NCBI GenBank assembly: GCA_973895155.1
Contig: OZ316892.1
Span: 15,492,861 to 15,556,860 of the forward strand
DNA from: Marsupella aquatica
Taxonomy: Eukaryota; Plantae; Marchantiophyta
Direction of reading: 5' to 3'
Length of the DNA stretch: 64,000 bases
The stretch's first letter is position 1. The number at the start of each line of letters is the position of its first letter. Made by a program: the position numbers and the translations under genes. The notes below the pieces were generated by a model. That model was not told the DNA's origin. It searched no databases and was given only the letters and a program-made list of their open reading frames with translations. Positions 30,086 through 57,273 of the stretch are shown here, piece by piece.

Positions 30086-30937
30086 TAGGCCACTTTCAAG
30101 AAATTTGGCTTGCTTTACCTCTGCGAGCCACTCTGAAAATCTTCTCTCCAGTTTGAGATTGCAAACCAACTTCAATGAGAGGAACAGGGCACGGCCTCTA
30201 CTGAAGGACGTACAAAACTTCACTTTTCAGATGCCATATCCTTTCCTCTCCACTCTCCTCTGAGTCTGCGTCAATCAATGGTAAGACATTGCTGGCCTCA
30301 AAGAGTGCCCACTCCCCAATCTCAACATCAAACCGACGAGCTAATTCATTGTCTGGTGTATGCCAAACAACACCATCAGTCGCAAGCACAACAACGTCTC
30401 CATTGTCTGGAAACGTGATCCTCACACGGCCAGCCATGATAAACACTTCAAGAAAGACTAATGTTGAGCACCACAAGAGTTCAAGTGGCATCTACCGACA
30501 GATTCCTTGTTCATGTAAGGGATTTAATTGCCTTTCCACGAGCATCAATTCCTCTTTGTTTCTCAAGAGTAGAGGAATTTTACGGTGCGAGCAAACATGA
30601 GTTTTTGCTAGCAAGGCAGCATTGTTAGCGAGGCACATTTTATGGTCAAACTCACAACACATTAATGGAAAAAACGACCAAATTTCACTGTTTTCCCTCT
30701 CTCAAAGTAATGAAAGTGTTATAACTATGGAAATTCATGCATGATTGTCATATGCATTCCATACTTGACTCTGCGCACAACGATATTGGAAAACAATAAC
30801 CGAATAGCAGGCACTTTCATGAGAACATGGTCATTCTTTATACATTGAAAGTATGGATATCCAAAAACCGGCACACAGAAAAAACTATAAGAGTCGATGG
30901 TAAGCAGTACAGCCAGTTTAACACTGAAGCTATTGCA

Positions 30938-33900
30938 TTAGTCATAAACCTCATCTTCTGAATCATCAGATATTGAACTTCTACTAGGATTGCTACTGGT
31001 CTCCCTCTCAGTAGACTCGGTAGACTCATCTAAATACTGGCTAACTATCCCTGCTTCATTGTCAATAAACCTTGAACAATCCAGATATCTACGAGCTCCT
31101 CTGATTGAGCGAAGCCCTTTCGCCTCCCAGGTCAAGACCACAGGAGCGTCATCAACCTCCTTCGCCGACTTCTCAGCATAGCACGGAAGAGTGAAAGGCT
31201 TCTCTGGAGTAACCACGATGGATTCCTCCACTTCCTTTCGAAGACAAAATCTCTCCTCATAAAACCAATCCACCCTCCTATCACTGAAGCAACCACCGGC
31301 ATCAGTTGAGGAAGAGCAACAAAATGAGTAAAACAAAAGAAACCAAATTGGGAGTCCGACACCAGAAGAGGCCAAGTACTTTACTCCAGGTCAAATTTGT
31401 CTTTCTCGCTTGAAGGTCCAGCCTGTTCATCTCCTGGTGTCGTGAACTCATCATCCGACCCAGCATCCTGATTACCCTTCTTTTCCTAATCTTTAATCAT
31501 CTTGGACTTGCTGGAGTGCCTCTCCAGAACGCTTGTTAAACCTTTCTGAGCACAAAAATGGAGAATGTCCCTGTCCTCAACACCAACAACAAACCGACTG
31601 GAGTATTCCCCTGCGGAAAATGAGCTTCCATCGCACACAGTCCAGTCAAGGACAATATCTCTCGGCTTCGTGAGGAACTCCATCACGGCTTGCATGAAGC
31701 CAATTGATAGCCTTTTTGATCCAGCAACGGCCGCTATTGGATAGGGGTCAATCTTTGGGTAACAAACGCTCAACATTGATTTATGCCTGGTATCTTCCAA
31801 AAACATCAAAGGAACATAGGCCCCTCTTTGGGAATTTTTGCATTAAATTCCACTCAACAGCAGATGTCCAAAATGAGAGTGCACACCTGAAGGAAGAATG
31901 ACATTCTATTAGAAAAGCCCAGAAACTTTGTTAGCGAGATCGCTCGCATTAATTTGAAGATGGAAATGAACCTTTTTTGAATTGAAAATGATAAGATGTT
32001 TGTTAGCGACATCGATCGCTAGCATAAACCCCATCAAAAATAGCTCAGTAATATGTACCTCAATATCCATATCGGCTCTCCATAAAGGAGTGGATAATAA
32101 AACTGTATATTGTTGTACGTGTTTGAATTTGTTTTATTGCTTGACCGCAGTAAATATTTGCCGCATGTGATTGAAATCCAAGCTATGAAGCACAGCCACA
32201 TATCCTTCGTCCGAAAGCATGGGTCTCATGACTCCAAAAAAGTAATAAGGCAACTTCTCGCTCCACACATTCCAGGGCGGGACCTCTTTGTCTGTAACGC
32301 GTGTTCTATGCCCTGTTGGAAGAGAAATGAATCCCAAATGTGCTCCAATCCCAGCATATGGCTTGCCGTTAATGATGACAGGGTTTGGGCATTCAACGCT
32401 CTTGGACATCCCAGCAATCCATCGATCTCCATCTCCCATCCAAGATGGCCTTACTTTACGCTGATAGAATTCGCAGTGTTGGTTAAATTACTGCGAGCAA
32501 GGAAATGTCTCTGGCCATCCATCTTCAACCCACACATCCAAGCGACGCCTTGAGCAACTGAAACTTCATCATCAAAATCCGACGGAATCTGGACATTCCT
32601 CTTTTGTTTCAGACGCTTTATACTTCCCAAATCCACTACGCTCTTTGTTGTTACTTCGACATCTGGGGACTGAGGTTCCTCTCCATCATCTGCCCCACTC
32701 TTCAAACTCTCAGAAGCAATACCCTTCCTCCTCTCTGTCAAAAAATAGCTATTAGAATTTGTCTCTTCATAAACACATAAGATCGTGAAAGGAAAATGAA
32801 ACGAAACATTGACACACTTACTTGGCTTTCCTGATATTTGGGACCCATCTTTAGATGTGTCTTTCACTGCACCTTTCCTTGGCTTTCGAGACCGACTCCT
32901 ATCCACTATTGCAGCTACACCAAGACAAGCCTTTTCCATAGCCTCGCAACCACCAACTTCAGCGTTAGTGGGTGCCAATTTGAACTCCGAGATGTAAGAC
33001 TCCGGAAGGAATCCACGATTGATCATATGAAGAGCGGCTTTCTCTGCAGTGTCGAAGGTGACAGACCACTTGTCTGAGTCCAAATACCATGGACAGTGAA
33101 GAATCTCCCACTTGCTCATTCTCCTCAGAGCCTCACATCCCTCGCAAGAAAACATAGAATAATCCCCAAATTTGTCACCTGTAGGATCCTCTTTAACTCC
33201 TGCAATCCATGGGGAGAAGCAAGTTGGGTAGGACCACCAGTAGAATTTGTCTGCTACTTCTCTGTCTACAAAAAATTGATACGTGTATCTCTTTGCTCTC
33301 CTTCGGAACAATGCAATCTCGATCTTCTCTCGTGTCTTGGGAGGCCAAATCTGCTTGAAGAAACGAGTCTTCACATGAGTTTGAAAATCCTCAAAATCCT
33401 CCTCAATGTCAAGGATGAGCGAAGCTTTGGTCTTTTCTGAAGAACTAAGGATCCGGGACTCTAGGATAGTAGACATAACCTCAGACACAATTTCAGACAT
33501 GAGGGAAGACGCAATTGACTCGACTTGCTCCCGCACTGCCCAACGGTGAAGCCAAAGCTTCGTTTCACTATCTAAAAATTGACTAGGATGAAAGAACTTC
33601 TTTTGAAGCTTTGGACGACACTGCACTTCCAGGAGTGTACATCGGAGTTCTGGGGATAAGGATGTCACCCCTGTGAACAACCAAGCTCAATCAAGACCAC
33701 AAGAAACATTTCCTCGTCCTTTGTCATCAGTTCTCTGGGCCTCCTTTCTCTCATTCTCGTAGTAGTTATGCATTTCTACACATTTCTTGAAAAAGTCTCC
33801 AAATTCTGGATTCATTAATGGACCGATCTTAGGAACTTTCACATTCCAATCAGCCAATTGCTCCTTCATCATCTCCCGCATTGCTGAGTCCTGTGAGGCC

Positions 33901-34977
33901 TTCGACAGGGGCTCCCCTTGAGCTTCCTTCAAAGCAAAGTTTTTCTTGAGGTCTTCCTTCTGAGATGCAATGTTAGCAGCGGATAGAATATAAGTGCAGG
34001 CATCCAGCATCATGTTCTTGGAATACCAAGCTGCCTTCCGCACGTTTGCCATCTTCTATTGGAAAAGTTTGTAATTCTCAGCATCGATGATATCCTTGTA
34101 AACTGACAAGTCGTTGTTCAGAATCTTCTGGACCCGTTCGGCCTCCAAAACCCAGGAGTTTTCAACATGACATTGTGTCAACCTGCCAGAGAATTTTCAT
34201 GTTAGCGAGATCGCTATTAGAAAGTGATTAACTGAAACACAAATTTCAGGAAAATGTTATACTTAGAAATTGCACCTATTCAATGCGTGCATTGCTGACT
34301 CGATCTGAACAAATGAGTTTTTATCACCCTTAAAAATCTTGCAAACAACTCATGGATGGTACTTAATATCTTCCGGATGCTCTTCTGCAAGTTGAGTACA
34401 AGAATACAGTCGATGGTTTCCATCAAAAACAAAGAACATCTTGTCTTTGAGGACGTGGAAAGATACATGGGAATCACAGTCGCGTTCGAACTCCTCGTTC
34501 TGCAGCACCCAAATGTCATCCCAAGTTTTGCGGATCGCATCAGTACACAATTGGAGCTCTCCATCCTTGTTGGTCATCTGTACGTAAAACCGAGGCGCAT
34601 CTTCAATGTAACCCTGGGTCCTGAACTCGGACTTCAGTGTGTCTATTGCAGTTGAATCCTTTTGCAGAGATCGAACAATTTGCATGTTCCTTATCCTGCA
34701 GAGAGGAATTCGAGGGGGAGCCAAAGAAAAACCAAACTCATTCACTCCGAAAGAGTAAAGATGACGGTTTATAACAACAGTATAAGATTCTGAAGCGCTC
34801 GGATCGAACACCGGTGCCACAACATCTACTGCTGTCACCATCTTGGGTCATGGAGTCTTCAATCTCGATGCTAGCACCTTCTTGTTCGCTATAGACCTTG
34901 TTTCTCTTCTAGTCGACTCCCTAGACTGGAACAATCCTCTGGAAGAAATACTCTTTGGAGACAACAATGACTCCATG
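30938..34977 (-). pseudogene. Multi-exon gene: N-terminal ParB/Srx-like domain and C-terminal beta-class N4C/N6A DNA methyltransferase-like domain; several stops and frameshifts
   Basis: FFVFDGNHRL (ParB-type DGxHR); AHLGFISLPTG..MRPMLSDEGYVAV (degenerate motif IV and R.L.pgG); MEFLTKPRDIVLDWTVCDGSSFSAGEYSSRFVVGVE (resembles T.pGD.VLDPF.GSGTT..AA...R..iG.E). Apparent introns at ~34184-34275, ~32737-32816 and ~31888-32057. Confidence 0.6.
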
Positions 34978-35558
34978 AAATAAAACCCTTTGCCAAAGAG
35001 TGTACTTTGCTGAAGAGTGTTCCTGTCCAGAGGATGCAACCCCAGCACGAGTGACAAATGTCAACAACAATCAGTACCGGACAGTCGTACAGACTGTTAC
35101 AAAGACCAGTTGAAGCCTAAAGAGGTACAGTCATGAATACAAAAGACGATGTTGAGTCCGAGGAAGGAATTACAGAAATCTCTTGGCAGAGATCACTAGT
35201 TGTACTTTTGGGAAAATGCAAAGAACAACTCTCACGGCCGGGAGTATGTAATCCATACAAAATAGGACAGGTGTCGGTCGTAGTTTGTACCGTTGACATT
35301 TTGGTACCCGTTGACTATTATCAACGAAATTCCAACGGTAAAATTGGAGACTATTGAAATTACTTTTTGGCTAGCGAGATCCCTGGCCTGAAATCCGTAG
35401 TCTATATCTACATAAAATCTAGGAAAATCTTTATAAATATATCCATAAAGCGTGTCATTATATGCTAGCGATCTTGCTAGCATGAGGACTTCGACGATAC
35501 AAGTAGTAAAAGACAAAACAATGATGACATCAACGGAAACTCTCTGACAATTTGGTCG

Positions 35559-38500
35559 ATGGGTTGTTTCCGTTGGGATGAAATGAGATTAAAGCTTCAT
35601 CATAAGGGTCATGTTGACGATCCTAAGCATAGTCATCTTCTTTTGTTGTCATCTAAAATTTTGTTTGGGATGATTGAGATGGCTTGCAAAGTCGTTTTGG
35701 AGCGTAGAATGATGAGAGATGTAGTTGTGCTTCCTAGCACACCAGGTTCATCGGAGGTGACAGTGATAGAGTCATTCCTTACAACTCGGTTTGGACTTCT
35801 AGATGGTGATATCATTTGCAAGTTGTTTGAGTTGTATTGTCAAAATGGAACACGTAGGACTCACGAGTTGAGAGAAGAGAGTAGTACTTCCAACAGGGTT
35901 TGGAAATTGAAGGTTGGATCTCATGTAGAGGTTGTGTCGAGTAAAGATGACATTCCTGAAATCATTCTGGACCATGTGGATTCTCCTCCTGAAGAAGAGA
36001 CTACTCGTGTGATCGATCTGGAAACGCCTACAAAAGAAATGGCCCCAGATATCATTGAAATATCTCTCGATAGTCTAAGGGAGGACACATCTTGTGGATC
36101 AGCCAAGTCAGGAGGTGTTTCGGAACCCGGAAGATTGGTCAAGAAAATGGATGTGCTTACCATGCCAATAGTGTATCGGATGAGTGCTTATGACGCTTTC
36201 CTCAATATAAGTGGCGCGAGTGAACTTGCATAATTTTGAAGAGGGAATCAGTGGAAGGAATGCCAGGTTCCTAGTCTGTCATCGACATACAATGGTAACG
36301 TTGTTTTTGAACTTCCTCCCATCGAAGGGTCCGAACGCGGAGGAGGTCTTCAAGATATGGATCGAGAGAACGACGGCTATCCGTGGACTCGACTTGTCAC
36401 TACATCTGCAAACCTGAAGCCAAGGTTCCATTGGTCTGTCTCGAAAGTCTGATGTGCTGGAATACTTGAATGCCAGAATTTGGGATGTCGGAAGTTCAAG
36501 CATACGAATGAGAAAAATGCTTGCTCGTTTAGAGGGAAAGGGTTACTGACTGACATCTTCCATCTTGGGGAGCACGTGAGTGAGGGTGGCATAGTCTTTG
36601 GATTTTGTGAAGAGCGACCGCTTTGTATTCAAAATTGTCCGGCAAAACTATTGTACGTGTACCATAAGCCAGGTTTGGAGAGTCACATTTCAATTCATAT
36701 GTCCAGGTTGGCTGTGCATATGGGATTCCATGACCATCCGATTTGGAAGGGGAAATCTCGTTCAGCGAGAAAGACTGCGGAAGATGTCATTTTAGGGGTC
36801 CATAGATTGAATCCAGTATCAACTTCAACACGTGTGAGATACCAATCCATTGGCAGCCTTGTCTCACTTTTGCATCCAGAATCATCATCTCAGTTGTCAA
36901 GAGAAGAACAGATGGAAATCTGGAGTTCCATAGGTGTGGTTTCCACTGCTCCCAAGTTCCAAGCTATACTCCGGAGTATCAAGATGGATAATCCCAAAAA
37001 AGGAGAACTTGATGCCCTTCGTGAAATGCAGTCAAGGAATATTTTCCTTTTGTGCAAAGGTACCTTTTTTCTGGTCAAGGGAATAAGAATGATCAAGCGC
37101 ATGTATTCAAAATGAGTACAAATGGACCTGGATCTGGTGTGGACATTTTGAGGAGCATGGAGTCTGGAGGAGTTTTGGAAGGTGCTTGGGTCAATTTTGA
37201 CGTGATGCATCGCATCACTACTAGATGGTTGACATTCAGTGCACATGTTTATGACCACAATTACCGGGCTCTGTGTACAATTTTTACTTGTGAGTTGAGA
37301 GCCGAAGACACCGAGTCCCTTGAAACTGCATGGCGATTGATGGTAGATGTGGCATCGGAGAATGGAGGATTCATAGCTGACAATGCAGAGGCTGGTTGGA
37401 TTGTTGTACGACGAGTTTTTTGGTGGTGTTCGAAATCCTATGAAAGAGCACAACGATGCTTTCCATTTTTCTCAGTCCCTAAGGAGACACACATTGGATG
37501 GCATCAAGGAGGGGTGTCATGCAGAGCATTATAAGATGTGGGAGAAGTTAAGGATTGCCCCAACTTACGTCGAAGCGTATAGAATTGCAAACGACATTCA
37601 AAATGGTGGAAAGAAGGGAATTGTCATCCTTCAAAGCTCAAATCCCTTCAAGGTTGGATTTCATGGTGGGTTGTGCGATGGAGACAATGGGGCAATTTTA
37701 TTTGAGTGGTAAGTTTTATCCATCATTTATGATCCATTTAAGCCAGCGAGATCGCTAGCCTAAATATCATTGTTTAACCCTGGCTAGTCTGTAACTAGTG
37801 TGCTTTCTGCTAGCGAGGTCGCTAGCCTAAATACATTGACTAACATTGATTCTGTGGCAAACACAAACTGCAAAAGAGTATGCCTTGATGCCAAACTGCG
37901 CGGGATCTAAATCTTCTCATGCTTCAATGCGATCCTGCCAACCAAAGAAGAGATTTGGTTTGATGGAAGCATGTGAAGTTGATCAAAATCGAGCAGTTGG
38001 ACAGATTGCCGCGTTCACTGCGTATATGGAAGGATGTCATCGTGGTAATGGTCCTACAATATTTGAGCTGGCCTATCGCAATGCAGATACTATGGGATCA
38101 TTGGATGCCTACGAGAAGGCATCCAATCTACTATTTGAATCCTCTGGAAAGTATGAGTTCTATAGAACAGAGCCTTTACATGGGGATATTCGGACAATGT
38201 CAGGAAAACGGAAGGGTAATGCTTCCGCGTCTATTCATGAGAATGATTCTCATCAACATGATAAAATATTGCGTATAGTGACATCTCCGTCAAGCTTGAA
38301 AAGAAGGAATCTGTACGCTGAATTCAGTAGTTTCAGAAGTGGTTCTGACCTTGGGGGACCGTCGTGTATTCCTGATAATGAAAACAGTCCCACTCGCAAG
38401 ACAGATGCTCTCCCTCGTGAAGTTACCAATATCTCAGATGATGGTGAAGAACAAAGCCTTGGAACAGATGTAGAAGGGACACTGATTACAAATGATGTTG

Positions 38501-39453
38501 GAGAAATACCATCTCCTCAAAATAGTCAGGATTGAATTCGGGATGCCCCCCGAAGGATCCCTTTTATTGAAGAGGTTGATATTTCGTACGGGACCTGGCA
38601 TTTAAGATGAAGTGGGAAAGGGAGTGGACCTGTGTGCAACGGACTAGTGGATCGGAGTGTCTTTGGTAGAGAAGAATGTCGTAATCTGATCAAGGAAACT
38701 GGATATAAAGCGTTACGGACTGGAGTTGTTGGTGTGGCCATTCACGGATTGAGGTTATCCTCCCCACATCGTCAGCTTCTATATTTCTGTCCAAATAATA
38801 AGTGCCATAAAACAGGTGGAAGAAGGACTCTTGCCCAGCTCCCGCAACCACCTGAGGCACTACAAGTCCAACGAGGAACTAGGCTGACCCTTGAAGAGAT
38901 TGATTTTCTCCTTCAAAATGGCTTTCAAATGATAGGGTTGTCATACTTTGATGCGACGCCAATCAGGTCATTCTCTCCTGCAAGTCGTCTTGACCTCCGA
39001 ATTGATGTGAACGCCTTCCCCGAAAGGGTTGACATTGCTTATTCAAATCGTCGATTGAAGACTCAGAATGGGAAAGGCGTTCGACAACATTTCCAGAACA
39101 CCCCTGAGCTTCTTAAATGCATTCGATCTGCAATTGTCGAACAGATGAGAGTCATTGGAAGTGACAAGATTTGCACAAGAAATGGATGGGGATGGCAATA
39201 TTTCATCGCTACTCACGAGAGTGACTCTAGAATTGCACACAACTACTGGGTTCAAGTGTGCTGCTTCCCTTGTTGCTCTTGTGATGACTTCTACAAGAGG
39301 CACACGCGAGGAAGACCCTACATGTCTTGTAAACATCTCCTCTGGGTGTACTTAAATAAGCTTTCGCTTAATCTAGAGAGAGACGATCTTGTGAAACAAC
39401 CAATTCTGACTGTTGGTGAACTGAGGAGTTTGATTCTGTTACACAGTAGTTGA
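35559..39453 (+). pseudogene. Mutator-like transposase with GCM/WRKY-like Zn domain, MULE DDE core and C-terminal SWIM finger; disrupted
   Basis: DGYPW..CAGILECQNLGC..CPAK..GFHDHP; NFDVMHR..GFIADNAEA..VF..DAFHFSQS; PCCSCDDF..SCKHLLWVY (CxCxnCxH). Intron donor GTAAGT at 37709. Confidence 0.75.
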
Positions 39454-40653
39454 GTCCATCACTTACATCCGTTAAGGTGGACGTTTAAGAGTACCTGTTT
39501 TTGTCGCATTCCAGGTTTCAAAACCTGAACAATGGACACTTTCCGAGTAATAAGAATGCTGATGGTATGTTAGCAAGGATCTTGTATATTAAGTGTGGGT
39601 CCTAAATGTTGCCTATTTTAACTAGCAATGTTGCTAACAATTAACAACACATATAAAGATGTAATTCGACCAAACTTCTGTGAAAGTTTAACATACACGG
39701 AGTGATTGCATGCCATCCACAACAAAAATCACTCAAGTACCGGTAGGCAATATTTACTAGCGATCTCGCTAGCAAGGTATGCACTCATGATATTGAAAAA
39801 ACTTTCAAAGCTTTATTCAGATATGCGTCCAATCTTTATCAAAACATCTGTAACTGACAAAATGTCCGTGTCCTACCGATCATTTCATTGAAAGGTCACG
39901 GACTTGACAGAGACTAACTGTAAAACTACGGGGGTTTGCAATGCGGAGTGATTGTCTAGGGTACTATTCATGGAGATGTTGCCTTGTAGGCGTCTAAACC
40001 TGTGTCCGAATCCGTATCATAATTGGACAAAGCTAGGATGTCGGATGTCCAGTAGTTGTGTATGTCGATGTCCCTCTAGTAAGACTCCTCCTCCTCTCTC
40101 TTCAGCTTCTCTGAAACTCCCTTAGAAATGGATACGTTTGTGCGAGAAGACATTGGTGCTCTAGAAACAACGCTTGAAGTTGTTTCCTTCGACGGTGCAG
40201 GTCGTTGAGTTGAAGCACAGACAACAGGCGGGACCCGACTGGATGATGATCCAGTCTTGAGCGGAGGGGGTATACTCTTCCTTGCCGGAGGAGAGCTTGG
40301 TGGCGAGTCCACTGGGCCATCAGTTTTGGCGTTGTAGCGGCGGACCTCCAGAACCCATTTGGCTTTTGGAGCGGAAGAGTCATCGTTCTTTGCCATTTCT
40401 GTCTGTAACAAACGCTACTGTGTATCAGATTACTTTCTCAACATGTGTTTACCAAATAGAAACAGTCACCTTCAAAACATCCAAGCTCATCGAGTCAAAA
40501 CGTGCAAAACTACGAGAAGGAAAATAGAACTGGGAAAACCAAACTTTCTCATTAACAATAACGCTACTTGCTGTGAAGAGGTCTCCCGGTGTCAAACTTA
40601 CATCTCCTTGTGCGACAAAAACTTTGCGAGAATGCGACACTCTCAAGAATACC

Positions 40654-43600: not shown

Positions 43601-44555
43601 AGAGGAGGCATGCCAGGAGGCCGCGGAGGAGACAGACGCGGCGAAGCGAGAGAACGAATCTTTGCTGGACCAGGTCCAGCTCCTCAAGGCAGACAACGAC
43701 AGACTTCGTAAGCAGCGGGATGGCCGCTCCCACTCGGGCAGCTCTGGCAAGCGTACCAGGCATTAGCGGCGGAGTAGAAATAGAATAGGGTTAGGAGTAG
43801 CTAGGTCAGGCTATTGGGATAGGCACCTGCCTTAGTTACAGCAGTACTGCCATGCTGTCCAGCCTACGTAGATTAGGATCTTCTAATAAGACACAACCGT
43901 TTTTCGGCTTGACAGTCAGATTAGTTAGGACCTAAGTCAGCGAATCTTTGGGTGGGAGGACACTCCGTTCCCCGGCCCTTAGTATTTAGTGCACCCCTCG
44001 GTAGAGGCAGGGGGGGTTTTTAGTCTCAGAGTTGGACATCCGTGATATGTGCGGGGAGTCCCGACCTCTAGGAGTGAAAGAGTACCAAGGGGAGGAGGTA
44101 GGACTAAGCTCGTCGGGCGAGTGCGGAGCCGGGCTCCGTTGTAGTATACTCTCTCGGCCTTGAACCTGTTCATTCCGGAGCTATCGAGTCAACCAAGTGT
44201 ACGCACATGTCCCCTATGTAGTAAAATCCTTTCCCATTATTTCCTTCATGTAAATCGAGATTGTATGCTCGTGCGCGTGTATGTGTGTATGAATCTCGTG
44301 TATAGGTGACAACGCCGGGCTGAACGCACTACCCGAGTCGTGCACGGGGTGCAGCTTGCGGGGATGTGGTTGCAAGCACGGGTTGAGGACCTGTATCATA
44401 GAATCCGGATCGAAGGCGGACAACACGAAGGCTTAGAAGTCCTTAAGCCGAGGTCGATCCTGTTATCGACTAAGGTACATTCCGGCAGCGGAACACAAAC
44501 CATACCTAGGAGATGTCCGTATCTAACAGTAGGCGCACTTAGCGGCGGCGTCACA
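40654..44555 (+). repeat. Left arm (position of the 3' LTR), bounded by a perfect 12-bp inverted repeat TGTGACGCCGCC..GGCGGCGTCACA
   Basis: Read directly from the sequence; TATAAAA at 41013-41019 points inward. Confidence 0.9.
41121..43766 (+). pseudogene. 882-codon arm-encoded ORF (Pro/Gln linker, plant-transposon extra-ORF-like domain, C-terminal coiled coil); 4 in-frame TAG stops
   Basis: ORFs at 41121, 41565, 42168 and 43431 share one frame, with stops at 41556, 42138, 43176 and 43374. EFVKNYD..LRGRNMSLTEERLKMIFGLP resembles the EFY.N..VRG..I.F....I...LGLP motif of plant retrotransposon accessory ORFs. Confidence 0.8.
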
Positions 44556-47500
44556 TAGCTCCCTGCTTAATTGTGAAGCGTCCTCGCGAACATCACTCTC
44601 GGCGTCATCGTCGTCTTGATGGTGGTACTTCCTTACACGATCGTAACTAACTCGCGTGGGGAGTAAATCGCCGGCGTACGTCGCAAGCTCCAACGATCCG
44701 TTAGGGTAGATCTGATTGACTAGGAAGGGCCCTAACCAACGGGTATGAAGCTTCCCTAGAAACTGCATGTACCTATTGTCGTACAGAAGGACTAGATCGC
44801 CTGTCACGACGTCGACCTTTCGTAGTCCTTTGTCATGCTATTTCTTGGAAGTTGTCTGCTTCATTACGGCGTGTCGAGCTGCTAGTAGCCGTGCCTCTTC
44901 CAAGGTTTCAATTTGATAAGCTCGGTCTGACGAACTTTCAGATTCAAGTAAGCGATCCCGAATGCTGACCCGTGGAGTGTGTACTTCAAACTCAACGGGC
45001 ACCAACGAATGTTGGCCGAACACGAGAAAGTACGGGCTATGACTCGTATTAGTTTTGTAAGCTAGATTATACGAGTACACCGCTGCGTACAACTTATCAT
45101 CCCAATCCGTTTTGTGCACAACTATAGTTTTGTTGAGGATCTTCCCAATGATACCATTTGCTCTCTCTGCCATCCTGTTGGCTTTAGGATGATACAGGGT
45201 AGTCTTGCGGTGCTTGACTAGGTAACGCTCCGTAAGTTGGGCTACAGTGTCATTGAGGAAGTGTGTTCCACGGTCGCTTACCAACTCTAAGGGTGGTCCA
45301 AACCGGGTGAAAATCTGTTCATATAAGAACCTGGCGCTGGTTGCGGCATCGTCCTTCATCGTAGCCCGTGCTTTGACCCACTTGGTGGAGTAATCAATAG
45401 CTAGCAGGATGTACTTGCATCTTCGTCTTCGGGTAACAGGAGTAAATGGCCCGATATAATCAATACCCCACTTTTCGAATGGTGCTAATGGAAGTACGGA
45501 CGTGAGAGGGTGATGATGAGCTCGTCTCGGGGCCCCAGCCCGCTGACACAGGTCACAGCCCTTGATGAAGCGTTGTACATCCCGATGCAACGTAGGCCAC
45601 CAATATCCGGAGTCCAGAATCTTTTCGGTTGTTGTGATAGCCGCGAAATGGCCTCCAGCTTCTTCTTCATGCAAGGCCCGCATCACGATAAGCGTCTCCA
45701 GCCTTATACTCCAAGCAGCGTCGTAACTTCCCATTAACTCCTTCCTTATGTAGGTGACCCTGTACCATGACGTAAGGCCCGGCTTTCCGTAGAAACACAA
45801 CGGTGGCTTCCTGATTAATGCCGTCAGGGATGCGGTCTGTCAAGAGGAAGGTGATTATTGAGCCGTACCACGTTGGCGTCCCCGCCCCTACGTGGAACAA
45901 CTCCTCATCCGGAAAAATATCATCAATTGGCTGATCGACTGGTACGCCGTCCAGCCTTGAAAAGAAGTCGGCATTGAGGTGTGCCTTTCCGGGCCGAACC
46001 CGAACTTTGTAGTTAAATTCCTGGAGAAGTAGCACCCACCGGGCTATCCGTCCCGTCCGCTTTGTTGACCATGTACTTAAGGCTATCATGATCCGTGTGG
46101 AATATGACCTTGTAGCCTAGCAGATAGTGTTGGAACTTTTTACACGAGTAGATTATTCCCAGAGCTTCTCGATCAGTGGGGGAATAATTCTTTTCGGCTG
46201 TGAATAATTGACGGCTAGCGAAGTAGATGGGGTGGTCGCGTCCGTTCTCATCAAGCTGACTGAGCACGGATCCAATACAGAACCCTAACACATCGACATA
46301 CACGTGGAACTCCTTATTCCAGTCCGGAGTGACCATGATAGGTGCGGTGGTGAGTCTTTTACGGAGTTCTTCGAAAGCAATCCGTCTCCTGGGTGTCTCC
46401 TTGATCACCGCGTCCTTTTTCATCATCTCAGTCAAGGGCAACGCTATTTTAGCAAAGTCTTTAATAAACCGACGGTAATACCCTACACAGCCCAAGAAGG
46501 ATCGTACCGCTTTTTGATCTATGGGAAACACCACCGCCATCCAGGCCGCGACCTTCTCTTGGTCCACCTCGATACCCCGTTTGGACATACGATGCCCGAG
46601 TAATACTCCCTCCTCTACCCCGAAAAAACATTTAGCGGGATGTAGTTTGAGTTTAACCTCTCGGCATCGTTGGAACGTACATCTTAGGTGTTCGGGGTGC
46701 ATGGCGACAGTTCCAAAGATGGCAAAGTCGTCGATAAATATCTCCAGAAATTCCCGTAGGAAATCATGGAAGATATTATCATGAGTCGCTGAAACATGGC
46801 CGGAGCGTTACACAATCCGAACGGCATTCTCCGAAATGCGAAAGTCCCCCATTCCGTAGTGAACGTTGTTTTGAGCTGATCCGAGAGGCGAATCCAGATT
46901 TGGTTATAACCCGAATACCCGTCAAGAAATGTATAAATTTCATTTCGGGCTACCATATCTAGAACCATATCCGTGAATGGTAACGGGTAATGGTCTTTTC
47001 GGGTCGCATTCAGCTTACGGTAGTCCTGACAAATCCGGATCTTAGGTTTTCTGTCCGTTCCTCCCTTTTTTGGTACAATGACGATGGGAGAGACCCAGTC
47101 GCTGGCCATTACCGGGTAGATGATATCTGCGGCGAGGAGACGATCAATTTCCTCCTTCACTAAGATGGAGTACCTTGGGTTCATGCGACGTTGTCGCTGC
47201 CGTACTGCATGGGCCCCCAGATTCAAATCGATCATGTGTTCTCCTAACTCGGGGGAGACTCCTGTTAAATCGTGATGGCTCCATGCAAACACATCTTCAT
47301 ATTCCTTGAGCAGAGCTTGGATAGATTTTTCCGCCTCCCTTGTCAGAGCGTGGCCTAGGTTAAACGATTTATCCATCCCAATGGTGTACTTCCGGTAGTG
47401 CTCCTTCCTGATGACTTCAACCTGGTTCCGCAAGCTTGGGTCTAGGCTCACATCAAGTTCAGCTAACCAAAATCCTCCGTACATGGGTGGAACCAGGATT

Positions 47501-50017
47501 GGTCTCGGGATTGGAGTTACTTCCTCCAACTGCGGGATGGACGGATCCCAGGAGACTCGTTTCTTATGTCTTGGTCTCGGGGTTTCAGCCCCGGCCGGTT
47601 GTTTGGCTGGTTCATGGTCATGAGGCTCTGCACTGGTAGAAGCAACATCGGCTTCCTGCTTAGCTGGAGCCGGGTCCTCCGTATCGATGAGTTGTTTTTG
47701 CGTTTCCTCATCCCGGGCAGTAGAGGTGCTTGGGGTGGGCTCAATAGCAGCCTTCGGGTAATTCAGGAGATGTGTTTCGCGGGTTGCCTCAATTCCGAAG
47801 ACATCTTCCTTGGACAGGGACGAGATGAGTTCAATCATGTTGAGTTCCTCTTCCTCCAAGGTCTCCAAATCATATTCCTTGGGTCCCTGTGGGGTTTCGC
47901 CCTGATAATCATCCATTGCCCATGATACCCGTATTGTGGGTGTCCCGAACCGTAGCTCCTTCTTTCCCCAATCCGTGACCACACGGCCACCGTACAGCCA
48001 CGGCCTGCCTAGGAGGACCGGATAAGAGGAGGGCCGAACCGGCCTCATGACTAGGAAGTTGAGATAGAACTCCACCCCTCCTACCAGAGTGAGTACCCGT
48101 GTAAGCGTGCCCAATGGAAGTACCCTTGCCCCGTTTGCTAATCTGATAGCTCGGGCTGTGGGTTGATACGTGAGGTATCCTAACTTGATTGACGTTTCTT
48201 CCGTCATGATGTTGACTCCCGCTCCTCCGTCTACGAGAACCATCCTGATGGTACAATTATTAATTTCAATCGAGATGTCCGGCGCTCCCAGGTCCTCGCA
48301 TATCATGTTGCGCCACGTCCACCAGATTCACCCACTCGGTGTTGTCATCTTGCCATTCCACCGCAATCATTTGGATGACCGCATCACTCGTGGCCGATCC
48401 GCCCTGGGCTGGTCTTGCTGCATTTGTTCGAGCGGCCATTACCAATGGACAGTTGGCCGTGGAATGAGCTTCCGTTTTGCAGACTTGACAAAGTGGCGTG
48501 CCACGGCCATCCCCCTGGCGTCTTGGTTCTGTGCATTCCCTCGCAAAATGGCCTGGCTTCTCACAGTTGTAACAAACCGGGGATCACCAAATCCCTGGTT
48601 TAGGAGGAATGCTAGGGTTACTGATAACTTGGAAGCCTTGGCCATTGTTTGGGTAGGGGTATGCAGTTCTACCTGCTAAGTTACGCGGACCCACCATTGA
48701 AATCTGATACACCGAATCAGGAGGGTCTTCAAAGAAATACTCCGTGGACTCCGCTTCAGGTCCCGGGTTGTCGACATCATCTAAGTCCACCTGGTGAACT
48801 CGGTTCTTCCATCTTGGGCATTCTTGCACGACATGCCCGGATTGGAAGCACGTTGAACACCACGCATGGGCTTGAATCTCAGATGGTTTCTTCTTCTCCA
48901 CCGGCTTTTCTGCGAGATGTACTGATAGTGCTTTGAGGCGATCCGTGATTTTGTTAAGCTTATCTGCTTCGGCAGCCTTTGGATCGGGTATTGCTCTGCG
49001 AGTACGAGATTTGATTTTCCCCTCCTTCTTAACCCGCCTTTTCTTCTTCTTGCTCCGACTCTCACTCTCCGAATCACTTCCTGATGAGCTGGAGGTGGAG
49101 GACCCACTGTTCGAAGTTGAATCCGAACTAGATTCAGTCTCCGAACTGGACGAGGTCGAACGATGTTTCTTCTTCTTCTTGCGTTTCTTCTTCTTCTCGT
49201 CGTCTGATTCGGAGTCATTGTCACTGAAGATCTCGTACTTGCCCTTCTTGCGGCGTGCCCGCTGGCTTCGCCGGGAGTTATAGGTGGACTCCCGGTAGGT
49301 TTTGGCGCACGCTATGGCTGCTTGCATTGAAATTGGATTATTCTGGCGCACCCAGAATTGCATATTCGTGGGCAAACCATGGAGGAACCATGTAAGCTGG
49401 AGTGCGTCACCAGGCCTGGGCCGTATTTTGGCAGCAAGTTTCTGAAACTTCTGAATGAACTTTTGTAGGGACTCCTTTTTTCCCATGCGAAGCTGGCCGA
49501 TCTTTAATAGAGAGCGCTGCTTGGATCCAATAGCATGAATTTCTTGCAACAACGCAGCTTGGAATTGTGCCCATGTAGTCCCGGGTGGCAACGAGTTGTA
49601 CCATGGACGAGCTTCTCCCCGCATCACTCCGGGGAGGATGGTTAACTTAATGGCGTCTTCCCCGTTAGCCTTAGCAGTGGCTTCAAACTCATCCAACCAT
49701 TCATCCGGGTCATCCCCATGACGCCCTTTGAAAGGTCGATAATGAAACCACGATCGTTGCGATATTTGTGGAGGAGCTTGGGCAGCGCGGGCCATCGGTG
49801 GGGCGGCTACCATAGGTGGTGGCGGTGGTGGCGGTGGTGGCACAGGAACCGCAGTAGGACCGGTCAAACCGGACCCCGAAGGTCCCGGTGGTATGTTCAT
49901 TCGTCGGGGAGATTGTGAGTCCTCCGAGCCCGAAGAATCGGAGCTTGTTGTGGTTGCACCTTCTCGTTCGCTGGTCAATCTCCTCAAGTAAGCTGCTTGA
50001 GAACGAGTGACGGGCAT
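44523..50017 (-). pseudogene. gag-pol (GAG-PR-RT-RH-INT order, no chromodomain seen) with frameshifts and stops
   Basis: WCSTCFQSGHVVQEC, VDGGAGVN, WVSPIVIVPKK, FLDGYSGYNQI, MPFGLCNAP, YFASRQ, HEEEAGGH..CDLC, WGIDYIG/SDRGTHF/AERAN, WLGPF. Confidence 0.95.
44556..44570 (-). other. Polypurine-tract-like sequence
   Basis: Minus strand AAGCAGGGAGCTA directly precedes TGTGACG at 44555, just after the integrase GPF region. Confidence 0.55.
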
Positions 50018-50110
50018 TTACTCGTGTAAATGCGATGGTTAGTACTAGGGCCTGGTGTATTCTGCCCAGGCGAATACACACATGTCTCCCCTCTACGATA
50101 TGTAGAGTGC

Positions 50111-50128
50111 CCCTTCCATCTAGCGCCA
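50111..50128 (-). other. Primer binding site, tRNA-Asn type
   Basis: Minus TGGCGCTAGATGGAAGGG, about 2 mismatches to the recalled plant tRNA-Asn 3' end CCCCTCCTTCTAGCGCCA; ~95 nt upstream of the gag ATG. Confidence 0.75.
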
Positions 50129-50141
50129 AAAACAAAGGCTA

Positions 50142-53100
50142 TGTCACGTCATCAGCCTTGGCCTAAACTCAGGCTTCAACTTTAAACGGGCACCTCCTTC
50201 GTAAATATGAGGGTTCGGGCAGGGAGGGAAGCGCGTAATGCACCTAATTCACGTAAACTAGTGCTAAGTGCGCCTACTGTTAGATACGGACATCTCCTAG
50301 GTATGGTTTGTGTTCCGCCGCCAGAACGTACCTTAGTCGATAATAGGATCAACCTCGGCTTAAGGACTTCTAAGCCTTCGTGTTGTCCGCCTTCGATCCG
50401 GATTCTATGATACAGGTCCTCAACCCGTGCTCGCAACCACATCCCCACAAGCTGCACCCCGTGCACGACTCGGGTAGTGCATTCGGCCCGACGTTGTCAC
50501 CTATACACGAGATTCACACACACATACACGCGCACGAGCATACAATCTCAATTTACATGAAGGAAATAATGGGAAAGGATTTTACTACATAGGGGACATG
50601 TGCGTACACTTGGTTGACCTGATAGCTCCGGAATGAACAGGTTCAAGGCCGAGAGAGTATACTACAACGGAGCCCGGGTCCGCACTCGCCCGACGAGCTT
50701 AGTCCTACCCCCTCCCTTGGTACTCTTTCACTCCCAGAGGTCGGGACTCCCTGCACATACCACGGATGTCCAACTCTGAGACTAAAAACCCCCCTGCCTC
50801 TACCGAGGGGTGCACTAAATACTAAGGGCCGGGGAACGGAGTGTCCTCCCACCCAAAGATTCGCTGACTTAGGTCCTAACTAATCTGACTGTCAGGCCAA
50901 AAAACGGCTGTGTCTTATTAGAAGATCCTAATCTACGCAGGCTGGACAGCATGGCAGTACTGCTGTAACTAAGGCAGGTGCCTGTCCCAATAGCCTGACC
51001 TAGCTACTCTTAACCCTATTCTATTCCTACTCCGCCGCTAATGCCTGATACGCTTGCCAGAGCCGCCCGAGTGGGAGCGGCCATCCCGCTGCTTACGAAG
51101 TCTATCGTTGTCTGCCTTGAGGAGCTGGACCTGGTCCAGCAAAGATTCGTTCTCTTGCTTCGCCGCGTCTGTCTCCTCCTGGCATGCCTCCTCCAGTTGC
51201 TGGGCGTCGCTCGTCAGCTTGCCCGCCAGCTGGTCCTACTTCTCGGCTTCAATTTGGAGCCGTGCCACTTCGGCCTGTAGCGTGGCTATCTCCGCAGTGT
51301 CCCGTTGGGCCCGTTCTTCGGCCTCCTCCAGGTCCTTCTGCCAGATGACAGTTTGATTCTTCAAACTGTCAATCTGGTTCTGGAGTCGTGCAATCTCGGC
51401 CTCGTTCCCAGCTTTGGCCTGCTTGGCTAGGGCGGTAAGGGCGTGCGCCTTTGCTAACAAATCATCGGCGGCTGCAACTTTGGGTCGTAGTTGCAGAAGC
51501 TCAGCCTCTTGAGCCGCAACTTCGTTCTTTAAGTATACGGACTCCACCCGGTACCGCTCTATCCTCTGAAGGGCCTCTGACTGGGCCTGACCTGCCTTTA
51601 CTGCGGCAACTAACTCTTGATTGAAGAAATAGGCTACCTTCCGGGCCCAACGGGAAGCCCGTTCAAAAATGTACCCGGTATGAAGAGTTCCGGGTGGTCC
51701 AGGTTGTGCCTGTCCAGAGTTGGGCACGGGCAGACGTCAACACGCGCGGGGGCCAGGGCAGTGACATCCAGCCCTGGGGACGTAATGTTGGAAGGGGTTG
51801 GAGTGTCCTCCTGCAGCAATGTCCGGTTCTCCGAAATAGCCACCGGTGCTTTGGGAGACCCGGGCTCGGGTAAGACCTCCGCCGTACCAACTTCTGTACT
51901 TAGCCCGGCCTGTTGGGTTGCATCAACGGTTGCGATAACCGACCCATCCGGTACCTCCTCGGTTACGACTACAGCTACTTGTGGAGGTGGGGTGGGTGAA
52001 GCTGGCGTGTCTGCTGGACTTCGGGCCTCGGGTTGGGGCCGTCTCTCCAAGGCCGGGAAAACCCACCTAGCTAGGACCAGCTTTGTAATGTTGACACGGG
52101 GAAGGGTTCGTCGATCAAACCGAGTGTACCACTCAAGAATGATCTCGATGTGGCTAGCAAAATACGCCTTCCCGCCAATGTACAGCGTCTTCCTTCGCCG
52201 CTCCATCTCTTCATGGAATTTCTTAGCGAAGTACGACGCCCACTTCCTAGGTCGATAGTTCTCGACCTGGATAACCTGGGCGGCGGAGATCTCCCCCCGG
52301 GGTTCCATCATTTGTAGGGCGTACCTCTAGAACTCCAGTCGCTCAGCTATCTCGGGGATGAGGCAGGTCCTCATCACGAACCCGTTGTCCACTGCTCCTT
52401 CTGAGGGAAAACTCGAGGATTGGTACTTGGCTCCCTTGCCCCCGGGAGCCCGTGATTTGACTCGATGGTCACCTTCGGGTAATCCGAAGATCATCTTGAG
52501 CCGTTCTTCCGTGAGGGACATATTCCTTCCCCGCAGCCGAGTATGCTGACGTGTGTCATCATAATTCTTGACGAATTCTGTCATGTTCTCCCCATAGTAC
52601 CTGCAAGTGTTCCAGGGCAGAGCGGCGAGGTGCTCGAATCCCTGAGTCTTCAGGTACACCGCATGCTTGGGATGGAGGATGTTCTTATGCACGTTTTCCC
52701 CCATGCGGTGCATTGTTACCTTGGCCATGGCTACCGTGGCCAATGGTAACCCGGATGCAGTGGTGGTTCCTTCCTCTTCTTCCCCCGTGACTGGCTTGGG
52801 GAAGGTGACACCTCCCCATCCTCTCGATCGGGCATAGGTAGTGCTACCGCCGTTAGTATTGGTCCCGGGGCGGCCACGGTCACCGTGTTGTCTGCTGGAG
52901 CCGCTCCTTGGGTCCGAGCATGGGGAGGGGACGATGTAGTGTTAGCCCCCTAAGTGTTTAGTCCTCTGGGCCGCCTGAGCAAGGGTGGGGTAGCCTCGTC
53001 GTCGTTGCTAAGGTCCACAACATTGATGACGGAGCATACTTGTACTGCTGGCAGGGCGATCGGCGGTGGGGGTTGGCTAGGCTGAGGCTGAGACTGAAGC

Positions 53101-54097
53101 TGACCCTGAGCCTGAGTCTGCGTTGGTACGGGTACGGGTATGGGGTCCACTGGGCTGGCGCTGGTGGTTGCGGGTCTAGTTCCCATGAAGCTCTGCAGGT
53201 GCTGGTAGAAGTTCTTCGAAGCAAGTGCGGATGACCTTGTCGAACGGGTAGTGCTGGACTCGCTGTTGATGATAGCCCGAACCTAAGCAGGGATGTGGTC
53301 AAAGTGATGTCGTTGCAAGTCGATCGTACCCGGGATATTGAAGACCTCGTCCGGAAGCCGAAGCAATGCTTCCCAGAAACCGATATATTTGTCTCCGTTG
53401 AAGAAGTACCCAGATACCTCTGCTGGTCGGTAAAGCTCACTCTAAGATGGGTAGTCAAAGTTAAGGATGTAGTGGTGTCGTCCTGCTAGGCGGATGGCTC
53501 TGTCGTACTCGCGTTCGATTTCGTATCGGCGCGGGTTGGCGTGTTTCAATGAGTCGGCCAAGTGCCTTCCGGTAGATAGGAACTGCGTCCAGAATTGAAT
53601 GGCCAAGCTGGAGAGGATCGTGTGCGACATTCAGAGAAGATAGTAGTGGCGACTTAGAGCAAACGAGAGAGCTGGGGTCGAAGCTGGCGCGTGGACTGAT
53701 GGACTGGTGCACTCCAAAGGGTCGGCTCCCTTTTTATACCTTGAGGGCTTGTCGATCCCCCAACATCTCCTCGCTGCCTATAGGCTGAACCGTTCACGCT
53801 TGTAGTGTACCGGCCACTCCGCCGGTCTGAGTCACCGCGTGTCAGTGGACGCCTCCCGAAGTTCGTTATACGGACCCGAGGGAGGGGCCCCTCCACGCTC
53901 GTAACCCGGGCATGCGAATGGCGACGCGCTGCCAGCCCGAATATGAATTCCCCTTATTGACTAATGATTTCCTACTCATAATGGCTACCTAAATACTGTC
54001 GCTATGCTAATCATAGCGGCCTAAGATACCCCTTACGCGCGTGCTAGGCATGGTTTAGACCGAATTGCTCATTACTCGCCGTACCGGCAGCGTCACA
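50142..54097 (-). repeat. Right arm (position of the 5' LTR); homologous to the left arm over 50263-54097, with ~120 bp of unique inner sequence ending GACGTGACA
   Basis: Reverse complement of 40654-44543; TATAAAA on the minus strand at 53738-53732. Confidence 0.88.
51038..53630 (-). pseudogene. Second copy of the arm-encoded ORF, with different stops and small deletions
   Basis: Same peptide as 41121-43766; TAG stops at 53442, 53283, 52950 and 52327, where the left copy has CAG. Confidence 0.8.
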
Positions 54098-54789
54098 ATA
54101 CCAAATCCCCTCCTCGCCCGCGGATATGACAACACAAACTCAATTGAAGTTACTCTGCGATGCGAAGACGATCGCGAAAGAGTGAGGAGATGATGAAAGT
54201 CAAATAATGAGAACACTGTTAGGAATGGAGATGAGTTGAGAGGTCCGAATGACATATAGTGCATTTTGGGAGCCTCAGATCTTTTGAAACGGTTTTGCGT
54301 TTCACGCTTCACTCATGAGGAAGGGGACATTGGATTTTGTCATGATATGATCTGGTGTAGTGCTGTTGCTGCAACCGTTAACACCCGTGCTTTCTAATGA
54401 GTGCTTTTTGTGTGGGTCATGACCGCACAAAGTATTTCGTGCAAGAATGATGGGCAGAGTTATGGCTAGCAACTTTGCTGGCTTGATGTACATTGGAATT
54501 ATATATTGAATTATGGTGCCATCGACGACCGTTTGTATCTGGGGAATACGTAATATGTACCAATCCATCGTCGGGATCGCTTTTTAAACCTAACGGGAGT
54601 TAAATAAATAGGTGGAATAGAAGGTTCCTTTTAGGCTAGCAAGAGTCACTTTATGCTAGCGAGGTTGTTTTTGTGCCAAATTTTGGGTATTCCAAGGAGA
54701 AAATGATCCCATGCGAGGAATTTTTGTACTATTTCCTCGCAAGCTACAATGACCCTCAAGAGCATAACTTAATCAACAAACAATATGTG

Positions 54790-55169: not shown

Positions 55170-56060
55170 GGTGCTCTCTGAGATGCCATCTTGCGGAGGT
55201 ATGAAGCCTAGAGCCATGTTAGAGAGGCTCTCCAAGATTAGATCTTGCACCAAATCTCACCAAGGACCATGTTAGAGAGGCTCTCCAAGATGCCATCTTG
55301 CGAAGGTATGAAGCCTCAAGCCCTCTCTGACATGGTCCTTGGTGAGATCCGGTGCAAGATGGCATCTCTCGACCTGACATATCACCATCTCTTGACCTGA
55401 CATGTCATCTCGGAGAGCCTCTCCGACTTAAGTCCCGACCTTACATGTCATCTCAGAGAGCCTCTCTAACATGGATCTTGCCCTGATATGTCGTCTCGGA
55501 GAGCCTCTCTGACATGGGTCCTCACCTGACATGTCATCTCAAAGACGCTCTCTGACATGAGTCTCGCCATGACATGTCATCTTGGAGAGCCTCTCTAACA
55601 TGGGTCCTCACCTGACATGTCATGTCAGAGACACTCTTTGATAGGTCTCGTCATTACATGTCATCTCGGAGAGTCTCTCTGACATGGGTCCTCACCTGAC
55701 ATGTCATCTCGGAGACGCTCTCTGACATGGGTCTCGCCATGACATGTCATCTTGGAGAGCCTCTCTGACATGGTTCCTGACCTGACATGTCATCTTGGAG
55801 ACCCTCTCCAACTTAAGTCCCAACCTTACATGTCATCCTGGAGAGCCTCTCTGACATGGGTCTCGCCCTGACATGTCATCTCGAAGAGCCTCTCCAACTT
55901 AAGTCCCGACCTTACATGTCATCTTGGAGAGCCTCTCTAACATGGGTTGCGCCCTGATATGTCATCTCGGAGAGCCTCTCTGACATGGGTCCTCACTTGA
56001 CATGTCATCTCGGAGACAATCAGGAACATGTCCCAACTTGAGACTGGCCTCACATGTCAT
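55170..56060. repeat. ~43-bp minisatellite (GACATGTCATCTCGGAGAGCCTCTCTGACATGGGTCCTCACCT) with an orientation switch near 55300
   Basis: More than 12 degenerate units; units at 55214 and 55268 are in the reverse orientation. Confidence 0.9.
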
Positions 56061-56489
56061 GCGAGTACTGTATATTTTTTGCAATTAAAGCCGATCGTTG
56101 AATGATTGTACTCATTAATACCAAGTAATGATAGGAAATCTTATCTGGTCAGGAATCAATTGTACCAAGGATATTATGGCGTGAAGGGGTAATGATAATG
56201 AAAGCATTTGTACAGGTAGTTCAGTGTTGCAACTCTGACATGAGTTAAATCCAGGCATTCATCATTATCAGAGTACAGCTACATATAAGCCAATAAACTA
56301 CTAACATGTCAACCTCCTCCTGTGGCCCCTACCACCTATAATCAATGAGTGGCCCCATAGATCTCTCATTTCTTGGATGGGACTCGACCTGCGTGACGGC
56401 GGTAGTGAATTCAGTTGTGATGCCCCTAGATCTTCCGTTGCCTAATGATGATGATGACTACATCCATCTCTTGCCTTTCCTCATTTGAA

Positions 56490-57185: not shown

Positions 57186-57273
57186 AAAGTGAAAAGCGTT
57201 TTGAAAATGACAGGGAAGAGGAAGCAATCCGCTCCCTCTCCTTCATCGTCTGGTTGGCAGACCAGATTAAAGA

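Follow-up and report, generated by a model that had tools for sequence, protein, structure and literature searches.

The window considered here is a stretch of 64,000 nucleotides from Marsupella aquatica (Marchantiophyta; GenBank assembly GCA_973895155.1, contig OZ316892.1, positions 15,492,861 to 15,556,860 of the forward strand). Within it lies what is likely a Mutator-like DNA transposon, split by a nested Gypsy retrotransposon and carrying two divergently oriented genes, one for a transposase and the other, termed here the accessory gene, for a protein predicted to combine a ParB-like fold with a degenerate methylase domain. Given the stops and frameshifts in both genes, this copy of the element is dead. 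A short palindrome, GCTAGCG-N4-CGCTAGC, recurs through the non-coding portions of the element and is considered below as a candidate recognition site of the accessory protein. The features of the element are as follows, in window coordinates and with the strand in brackets where one is assigned.

30572..30581 (+): candidate target-site duplication, left copy, GAGGAATTTT; the sole 10-mer common to both searched flanks, possibly by chance
30582..54714: likely Mutator-like DNA transposon, ~10.7 kb without the insertion; ends placed by the 10-bp direct repeat outside the terminal half-site pairs
30938..34976 (-): accessory gene, pseudogenised; predicted ParB-fold domain (DGNHR), helical region and degenerate beta-class N6/N4 methylase, from tblastn with Riccia sorocarpa proteins
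34186-34275, ~32727-32820 and 31890-32058 (-): three predicted introns of the accessory gene, from spliced Riccia models
35679..39453 (+): transposase gene, Mutator-like element (MULE) type, pseudogenised, with a C-terminal SWIM-like Cys/His motif; from homologs, tblastn and ESM Atlas
37709-37860 (+): transposase intron, the acceptor AG of which is missing in the window copy and retained in most related contigs
40079..40402 (-): short Ser/Pro-rich open reading frame (ORF), a possible third gene; related contigs cover the region and no family was found
40654..54097 (-): nested Gypsy long terminal repeat (LTR) retrotransposon, outside the system; 13.4 kb, 5-bp target-site duplication ATACC, one LTR inverted
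54715..54724 (+): candidate target-site duplication, right copy; direct repeat of the left copy

A first-pass annotation of the window had described an 18-bp palindrome with a GATC core, GCTAGCGAGATCGCTAGC, as being repeated through the non-coding parts of this element. No exact copy of the 18-mer exists in the window. When up to three mismatches were allowed, seven distinct sites were obtained (31930, 34201, 35370, 35464, 37742, 37809 and 39756), as compared with a mean of 0.03 and a maximum of 2 matches in 100 shuffles. A looser scan for GCTAGCG-N4-CGCTAGC, in which CpG decay was scored as half a mismatch, returned nine sites with a 4-bp spacer in the element, namely, the same seven as well as 39621 and 54465. 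A tenth two-armed site, at 32002, has an 8-bp spacer, and five half-sites were found (30607, 30624, 39569, 54635 and 54655). All ten two-armed sites and all five half-sites lie in non-coding DNA, as listed here.

30607..30631 (+): left terminal half-site pair (30607, 30624); relatives read G at 30613
31930..31947: palindrome site, accessory-gene intron 3; 18-mer and looser scans
32002..32023: palindrome site with 8-bp spacer, accessory-gene intron 3; looser scan
34201..34218: palindrome site, accessory-gene intron 1; 18-mer and looser scans
35370..35387: palindrome site, divergent intergenic region; 18-mer and looser scans
35464..35481: palindrome site, divergent intergenic region; 18-mer and looser scans
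37742..37759: palindrome site, transposase intron; 18-mer and looser scans, related contigs
37809..37826: palindrome site with perfect arms, transposase intron; looser scan, related contigs
39569..39576 (+): half-site; half-site pattern
39621..39638: decayed palindrome site, 3' of the transposase gene; looser scan, with consensus letters in relatives
39756..39773: palindrome site, 3' of the transposase gene; 18-mer and looser scans
54465..54482: palindrome site, right non-coding end; looser scan
54635..54662 (+): right terminal half-site pair (54635, 54655); half-site scan

Each of the 13 coordinates noted in the first-pass annotation holds a site or half-site. The seven positions returned by the 18-mer scan are near-complete copies, as described; of the other two so described, that at 32002 has a spacer of 8 rather than 4 bp and that at 39621 is more decayed, with related public contigs showing the consensus letters at 39627 and 39632, as they do at 30613. 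The full site at 54465 and the half-site at 39569 had been overlooked. The element also includes the sites at 54465-54655, since 40654-54097, which separates them from the others, is an insertion flanked by a 5-bp target duplication.

The sites are confined to the element and to its non-coding DNA. At a cost of at most 2.5, the 4-bp spacer gave nine matches in the window, seven of them inside the element and two at 60.5 kb, where they lie in a tandem repeat of 57-bp units; no match had a spacer of 0-3, 6 or 11 bp, and the remaining spacers gave 1-3 each. The two matches in the tandem repeat, at 60529 and 60586 and each at cost 2.5, are the best look-alikes beyond the element. Apart from them, the looser scan detected no full copy in the CUL4 region (the exons of which were recognised by eye) or in any further repeat of the window; the first-pass annotation had noticed none in CUL4 or the other transposable elements. 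The half-site pattern RYTAGCRA, built post hoc from the sites themselves, occurs 22 times in the 3,061 non-coding bases of the element, as against 11 times in the 53,303 bases outside it and not at all in its 7,636 exon bases, the boundaries of which were deduced from homology and GT-AG signals. This agrees with the earlier placement of the sites in introns, the divergent promoter and 3' flanks. In an unsupervised ranking of k-mers from the non-coding part of the element, words from the motif came first. With the nested insertion removed, clusters of sites occur at intervals of 1.2-2.3 kb along the entire element. Its ends carry half-sites only; the two-armed sites closest to perfect are found in introns and the promoter, 5-9 kb inward.

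To address conservation, a divergent relative (L001) was considered, this being a metagenome locus fetched by transposase alignment rather than by motif, and the one locus so obtained from 86 pattern matches in a single scan. Its translated segments share 37-69% identity with the window. The homologous intron of L001 (316 bp) contains three sites of the form GCTAG(C/T)G-C(C/T)GG-CGCTAGC and its exons contain none; no site appeared in any of 1,000 shuffles. Once the sites were removed, the introns of L001 and the window no longer aligned, with 344 of 500 shuffles scoring at least as high. Between two introns that otherwise cannot be aligned, both the arms (7 bp) and their spacing (4 bp) have thus been kept, the centre having moved in concert from A-NN-T to C-NN-G. 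Arm position 8 is A in 25/25 window arms, in part due to how arms were selected, and C in 6/6 L001 arms. This amounts to a concerted, family-specific shift of the sort seen with VANC motifs (PMC5735166). GATC is found at the centre of six of the nine N4 sites of the window and at none of the three in L001, such that the conserved unit is GCTAGCG-N4-CGCTAGC, with the GATC core earlier included in the site falling outside it. Across the window and L001, the motif proved neither as frequent outside the element as within it nor to be the remnant of a tiny repeat lacking positional conservation, the two findings on which the first-pass annotation would have abandoned its proposal.

The second site of L001 lies in the middle of a perfect 29-bp inverted repeat (positions 1172-1231), the outer part of which holds GTTTCAC...GTGAAAC, letters that we take to resemble a parS half-site. 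This is probably either coincidence or a symmetry lengthened by template switching. A bacterial origin of the motif was also considered and rejected, since the 12 GTDB loci with paired sites, nine of which are from Solirubrobacterales, resemble neither the element nor its proteins. In bacterial loci L002, L005, L010 and L011 (~4900-5400), YGCTAGCR runs with a 12-bp pitch lie directly upstream of a conserved 85-amino acid ribbon-helix-helix gene, with RHH_1 scoring above cut-off in 4/4 scanned. These runs are likely an autoregulatory operator, unrelated to the transposon despite the same geometry.

The accessory gene was recognised from spliced Riccia models of ~1,200 amino acids, which align along 34.8-31.5 kb and agree with the intron positions. 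A HMMER search with its first exon returned 195 relatives at E <= 0.001; organism names were checked for 20 of these, of which 11 were named, six being Riccia sorocarpa and five Adiantum. Word-based homolog searches with two pieces of the gene found nothing. No relatives were found in viral contigs or GTDB. One Adiantum capillus-veneris homolog of the ParB-like domain (P0094) is annotated as fused to an FCP1/NIF phosphatase (PF03031, E 2.4e-12), which may be a gene-model artefact.

An AlphaFold model of a Riccia homolog (P0054; mean predicted local distance difference test (pLDDT) score 73.6) superimposed on Caulobacter ParB-CTP (7bm8) with Z 8.8 and a root-mean-square deviation of 2.4 A over 99 residues. 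In an unbiased structure search with the same model, KorB ranked first among 48,161 chains (Z 7.8), followed by PadC, pNOB8 ParB, sulfiredoxin, SerK and SbnI, interspersed with unrelated helical entries. Foldseek placed ParB and Noc at the top, but with E > 0.08. On the strength of the model, the accessory-protein homolog is predicted to contain the ParB/Srx nucleotide-binding fold. The GxxR motif of this fold reads GNHR in the window, and its G and R are retained in 52/54 and 51/54 aligned relatives, respectively.

The C-terminal domain matched PF01555 in three of five Riccia homologs (E 9e-6 to 5e-5, slightly below the curated cut-off), with DpnA being the best PDB match (E 0.037), and its motif IV precedes motif I, as in beta-class N6A/N4C methyltransferases. 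Motif IV reads SLPTG in the window and DLPTG, DMPSG or DMPTG in the 4/4 Riccia homologs that hold it, and so departs from the catalytic (D/N/S)PP(Y/F/W). Active Marchantia MpDN4MT1 carries TSPPY (bioRxiv 2021.02.12.428880). As the aromatic residue of motif IV is gone, the accessory methylase is probably inactive.

Homologs of the transposase (n=23; 53-72% identity across a 103-amino acid piece) come from Calypogeia fissa and Riccia sorocarpa, the named sources, both liverworts, and from metagenomes; the element likely stems from a liverwort-like plant, these homologs pointing to a bryophyte host. A 678-amino acid homolog compared with ESM Atlas matched MULE clusters (0.88), with 9/10 best matches being consistent, although this is a lead only, and a Pfam scan of four long homologs, including this one, gave no match. 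Assignment of the element as Mutator-like is therefore likely rather than proven. The SWIM-like motif was recognised by eye. Intron read-through in the 23 homologs revealed no motif-derived peptide, most tails being too short to judge. The 10-bp direct repeat at 30572 and 54715, if a target duplication, would fall within the 9-11 bp of MULEs, the ends thus placed coming from a single insertion. No inverted similarity was detected between the element ends, i.e., no terminal inverted repeat (TIR); long TIRs are absent in non-TIR MULEs. In all four public runs considered (three studies, three organism codes), 295-2,664 related contigs of mixed identity per run map along 29.5-40.7 kb, pointing to a multi-copy family; the window may itself stem from one of these runs.

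Taken together, we hold with moderate confidence that GCTAGCG-N4-CGCTAGC is a recognition site of the element's own ParB-fold/methylase-like accessory protein, used in the manner of VANC or VirB to mark or de-silence the element. That the sites might form a self-recognition system had been raised in the first-pass annotation. Of that idea, element specificity, exclusion from exons in the window, retention of positions in a divergent relative and the encoding of a predicted ParB-fold, methylase-like protein have stood; the GATC core as part of the site has not. The methylase of the protein is probably inactive. Dimers usually bind symmetric sites in which the spacing is fixed and the centre free, and ParB and its relatives load at palindromes. 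A dimer of the accessory protein would read the two arms, and nucleotide binding would close a clamp that spreads from each cluster, by analogy with ParB, KorB and VirB; clusters every 1.2-2.3 kb could in this manner lead to coverage of the whole element. The least certain step is the outcome, namely that family copies would stay transcribed or carry less methylation, an effect that VANC has on VANDAL elements. VirB is a ParB-type, CTP-dependent anti-silencer (PMC10770331). A broader version of the proposal is possible, if doubtful. Here, transposons of one lineage, widespread in land plants such as liverworts and ferns, would use a bacterial-type ParB sliding clamp that is loaded at dispersed parS-like palindromes in their introns and promoter and then spreads over the element, shielding it from host silencing; the dead methylase would serve as a DNA reader, and GCTAGCG-N4-CGCTAGC would be a eukaryotic parS-like site, the inner bases of which co-evolve with the protein.

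Several observations weigh against this proposal. L001 spans only 2,078 bp and the transposase is the sole gene visible in it, so that the site is seen alongside the accessory gene in the window element only, and evidence of co-variation comes from this single relative. Related contigs covering the transposase intron vary at 2/28 non-CpG motif positions vs. 18/106 other positions, a difference short of significance (p 0.16, or p 0.06 without one change towards the consensus). The perfect 29-bp inverted repeat around one L001 site would suit a structural role. The helical region following the ParB domain, folded alone (pLDDT 72), gave no helix-turn-helix (HTH) match, which is not evidence of absence; a profile comparison with three ParBs yielded none either, but it failed to register even the ParB domain. 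ParB folds bind ATP, CTP or GTP, yet among 28 purified proteins with this fold, 17 bound none of these (bioRxiv 2025.10.10.680097). Given such varied nucleotide use, a CTP clamp cannot be assumed. Finally, G-to-A changes at CpG affect 8/25 window arms, and CpG decay is seen in relatives as well. This shows only that CpG methylation affected the sites during some of their past, which argues mildly against lasting protection, though the window copy is dead.

The decay is unevenly placed, striking the inner as opposed to the outer CpG 7 vs. 0 times in window sites and at 4 vs. 0 positions in related contigs. Selection as the cause of this asymmetry was rejected. When the LTR pair of the nested Gypsy element (40654-44543 vs. 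50263-54097) was used as a neutral reference, CpG decay according to the 5' base was 25/116 for T, 19/104 for A, 14/149 for C and 5/94 for G, i.e., a fourfold bias between TCG and GCG, and L001 shows one outer change. The first-pass annotation had suggested that the CG of the site could be methylation-sensitive; in the window copy, the pattern of CpG decay in the sites is explained by neutral methylation.

Other proteins could read the same sites. Were the transposase itself to bind them, be it for synapsis of an element lacking TIRs or to switch on transcription of its family, one could account for the failure to find a TIR, for the terminal half-site pairs lying 25 bp and ~50 bp inside the presumed ends and for the site co-occurring with a transposase gene in L001. 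AtMu1c transposase does bind cognate motifs and activate its family (bioRxiv 2026.08.24.746577). In that same source, however, binding within AtMu1 peaked at the TIRs, whereas the best sites here are internal and the ends offer half-sites only. Clusters that run from end to end are more in line with a spreading protein that has many loading points than with a transposase, and this alternative is considered unlikely. Recruitment of a transcription factor of the host, or of the protein encoded by the short ORF at 40079-40402, to which no function is assigned, would also explain two good sites in the divergent promoter region, and conservation of all but the spacer fits any dimeric DNA-binding protein, as the same geometry upstream of bacterial ribbon-helix-helix genes illustrates. 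Yet no full site lies in the CUL4 region or elsewhere among the window's repeats, and a host factor would be less likely to follow the family-specific change at arm position 8; recruitment of either protein appears quite unlikely.

It is also conceivable that no protein is involved. The palindromes could act as hairpins in RNA or single-stranded DNA, or as cruciforms (7-bp stem, 4-nucleotide loop), for instance in splicing or transposition, consistent with a centre that is constant in length and free in sequence, with two window sites in which changes on both arms preserve pairing, and with L001, where the symmetry around the sites continues into longer perfect arms (13-29 bp) and the intron folds with a z of -10. 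Window sites, by contrast, extend by only 0-2 pairs and three window introns reach z of only -1.4 to -1.9, while half-sites are unable to fold and two sites are intergenic. Moreover, a hairpin would not retain the sequence of its arms as the surroundings turned over, and such a role is deemed very unlikely. Finally, the sites might be neutral, left over from a tiny repeat or from duplications within the region, as some pairs share flanks (37737-37766 vs. 37804-37833, 87%; L001 1193 vs. 1283, 29/70 flank letters) and as decay of their CpGs follows the neutral context bias. The retention of arms and spacing between elements whose introns no longer align, together with the spread of sites over seven separate non-coding stretches and none in exons or neighbours, renders a relic highly improbable.

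Examination of the remainder of the window revealed further features. The two 3.9-kb LTRs of the Gypsy element are inverted rather than direct, with 145 differences in 3,835 aligned bases and an intact 5-bp target-site duplication; the gag-adjacent LTR, apparently flipped, has no 12-bp inner terminal repeat. This arrangement could be due to aberrant cDNA, later inversion or assembly error. Long ORFs in the LTRs had no Pfam match. At 58055-59202 (-), a retrotransposon integrase is followed by a PHD finger (PF00628, E 8.5e-11). Tandem arrays with periods of ~43, 97 and 57 bp occupy 55170-56110, 56790-57210 and 60419-60848, respectively, the 43-bp array having inverted copies at its left end, and 26395-27107 holds a 311-bp duplicated A-rich array. 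At 11729-12640 (-), consecutive ORFs of 196 and 106 amino acids, separated by one stop, contain Cys/His residues and appear OB-fold-like by eye; the longer had no Pfam match.

Three groups of known systems were compared with the element. A search of the literature on ParB-bearing plant or eukaryotic transposons and their motifs found only two papers, both algal; supplements and Repbase lay outside its scope, so that algal repeat sequences may be published. The accessible portion of Iyer et al. (PMC4738411) yielded no description of this accessory family. Dinatale et al. (PMC12477816) describe an Ectocarpus Sola element, Sola1-1_Ec32, in which a gene for a ParB-like and N4C/N6A methyltransferase protein lies opposite the transposase. 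The strand arrangement, the order of a ParB-like domain and then a methylase, the protein length (1104 vs. ~1200 amino acids in the Riccia homologs) and the proposal that the protein binds its own element are all shared. By contrast, that element is a Sola transposon of a brown alga rather than a Mutator-like element of a land plant, its methylase is predicted to be active, whereas motif IV here lacks the aromatic residue, and no binding site is named in the text available. For Plavaka elements of red algae, tandem inverted repeats have been put forward as the target of an accessory protein with a ParB domain (Petroll et al., bioRxiv 2025.02.11.637652). Bostrychia PAG3/PAG2 are similar in offering a ParB-domain accessory protein in a DNA transposon and inverted repeats as proposed binding sites; there, however, ParB is fused to a 2-oxoglutarate oxygenase, the methylase is a separate gene, the element is EnSpm/CACTA and the repeats are tandem arrays beside PAG3, whereas here they are dispersed through introns.

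In layout, a parallel is offered by Arabidopsis VANDAL elements, where VANC binds motifs in introns and intergenic regions (Hosaka et al., PMC5735166). As with VANC21 and VANC6, a Mutator-like element with an accessory gene has short, family-specific motifs in intronic, intergenic and terminal non-coding DNA, and the motif is enriched in the non-coding DNA of its cognate element. Those motifs, however, are 8-9 bp, asymmetric and in tandem repeats, and binding and demethylation have been demonstrated there (PMC5735166), whereas here both are proposed. Pfam scans turned up no similarity to VANC, although no direct comparison with VANC was made. In ParB-parS, KorB-OB and Shigella VirB-virS, one encounters the same nucleotide-binding fold with GxxR, put to use in anti-silencing in the case of VirB. 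The parS and OB sites are palindromes of similar size. The element differs from these systems in that no ParA-like ORF was found among the element ORFs scanned and no HTH match was obtained, as well as in the long insertion and helical region of its protein, the predicted C-terminal methylase fold and the setting of eukaryotic chromatin.

As such, the layout resembles that of VANDAL/VANC and the mechanism may resemble that of ParB/VirB, with the element a member of neither on the features tested. ParB accessory genes with proposed self-binding were already known from algal transposons; new here are the occurrence in a Mutator-like lineage of land plants, a dispersed site that is defined in sequence, and a comparison across families that tests whether this site is conserved. 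With a concrete 18-bp candidate having conserved arms and a family-specific centre, and with annotated Riccia sorocarpa homologs, the proposal is open to test by one binding assay. If true, a prokaryotic nucleotide-switched clamp on plant chromatin would represent a second, independent design for anti-silencing beside VANC.

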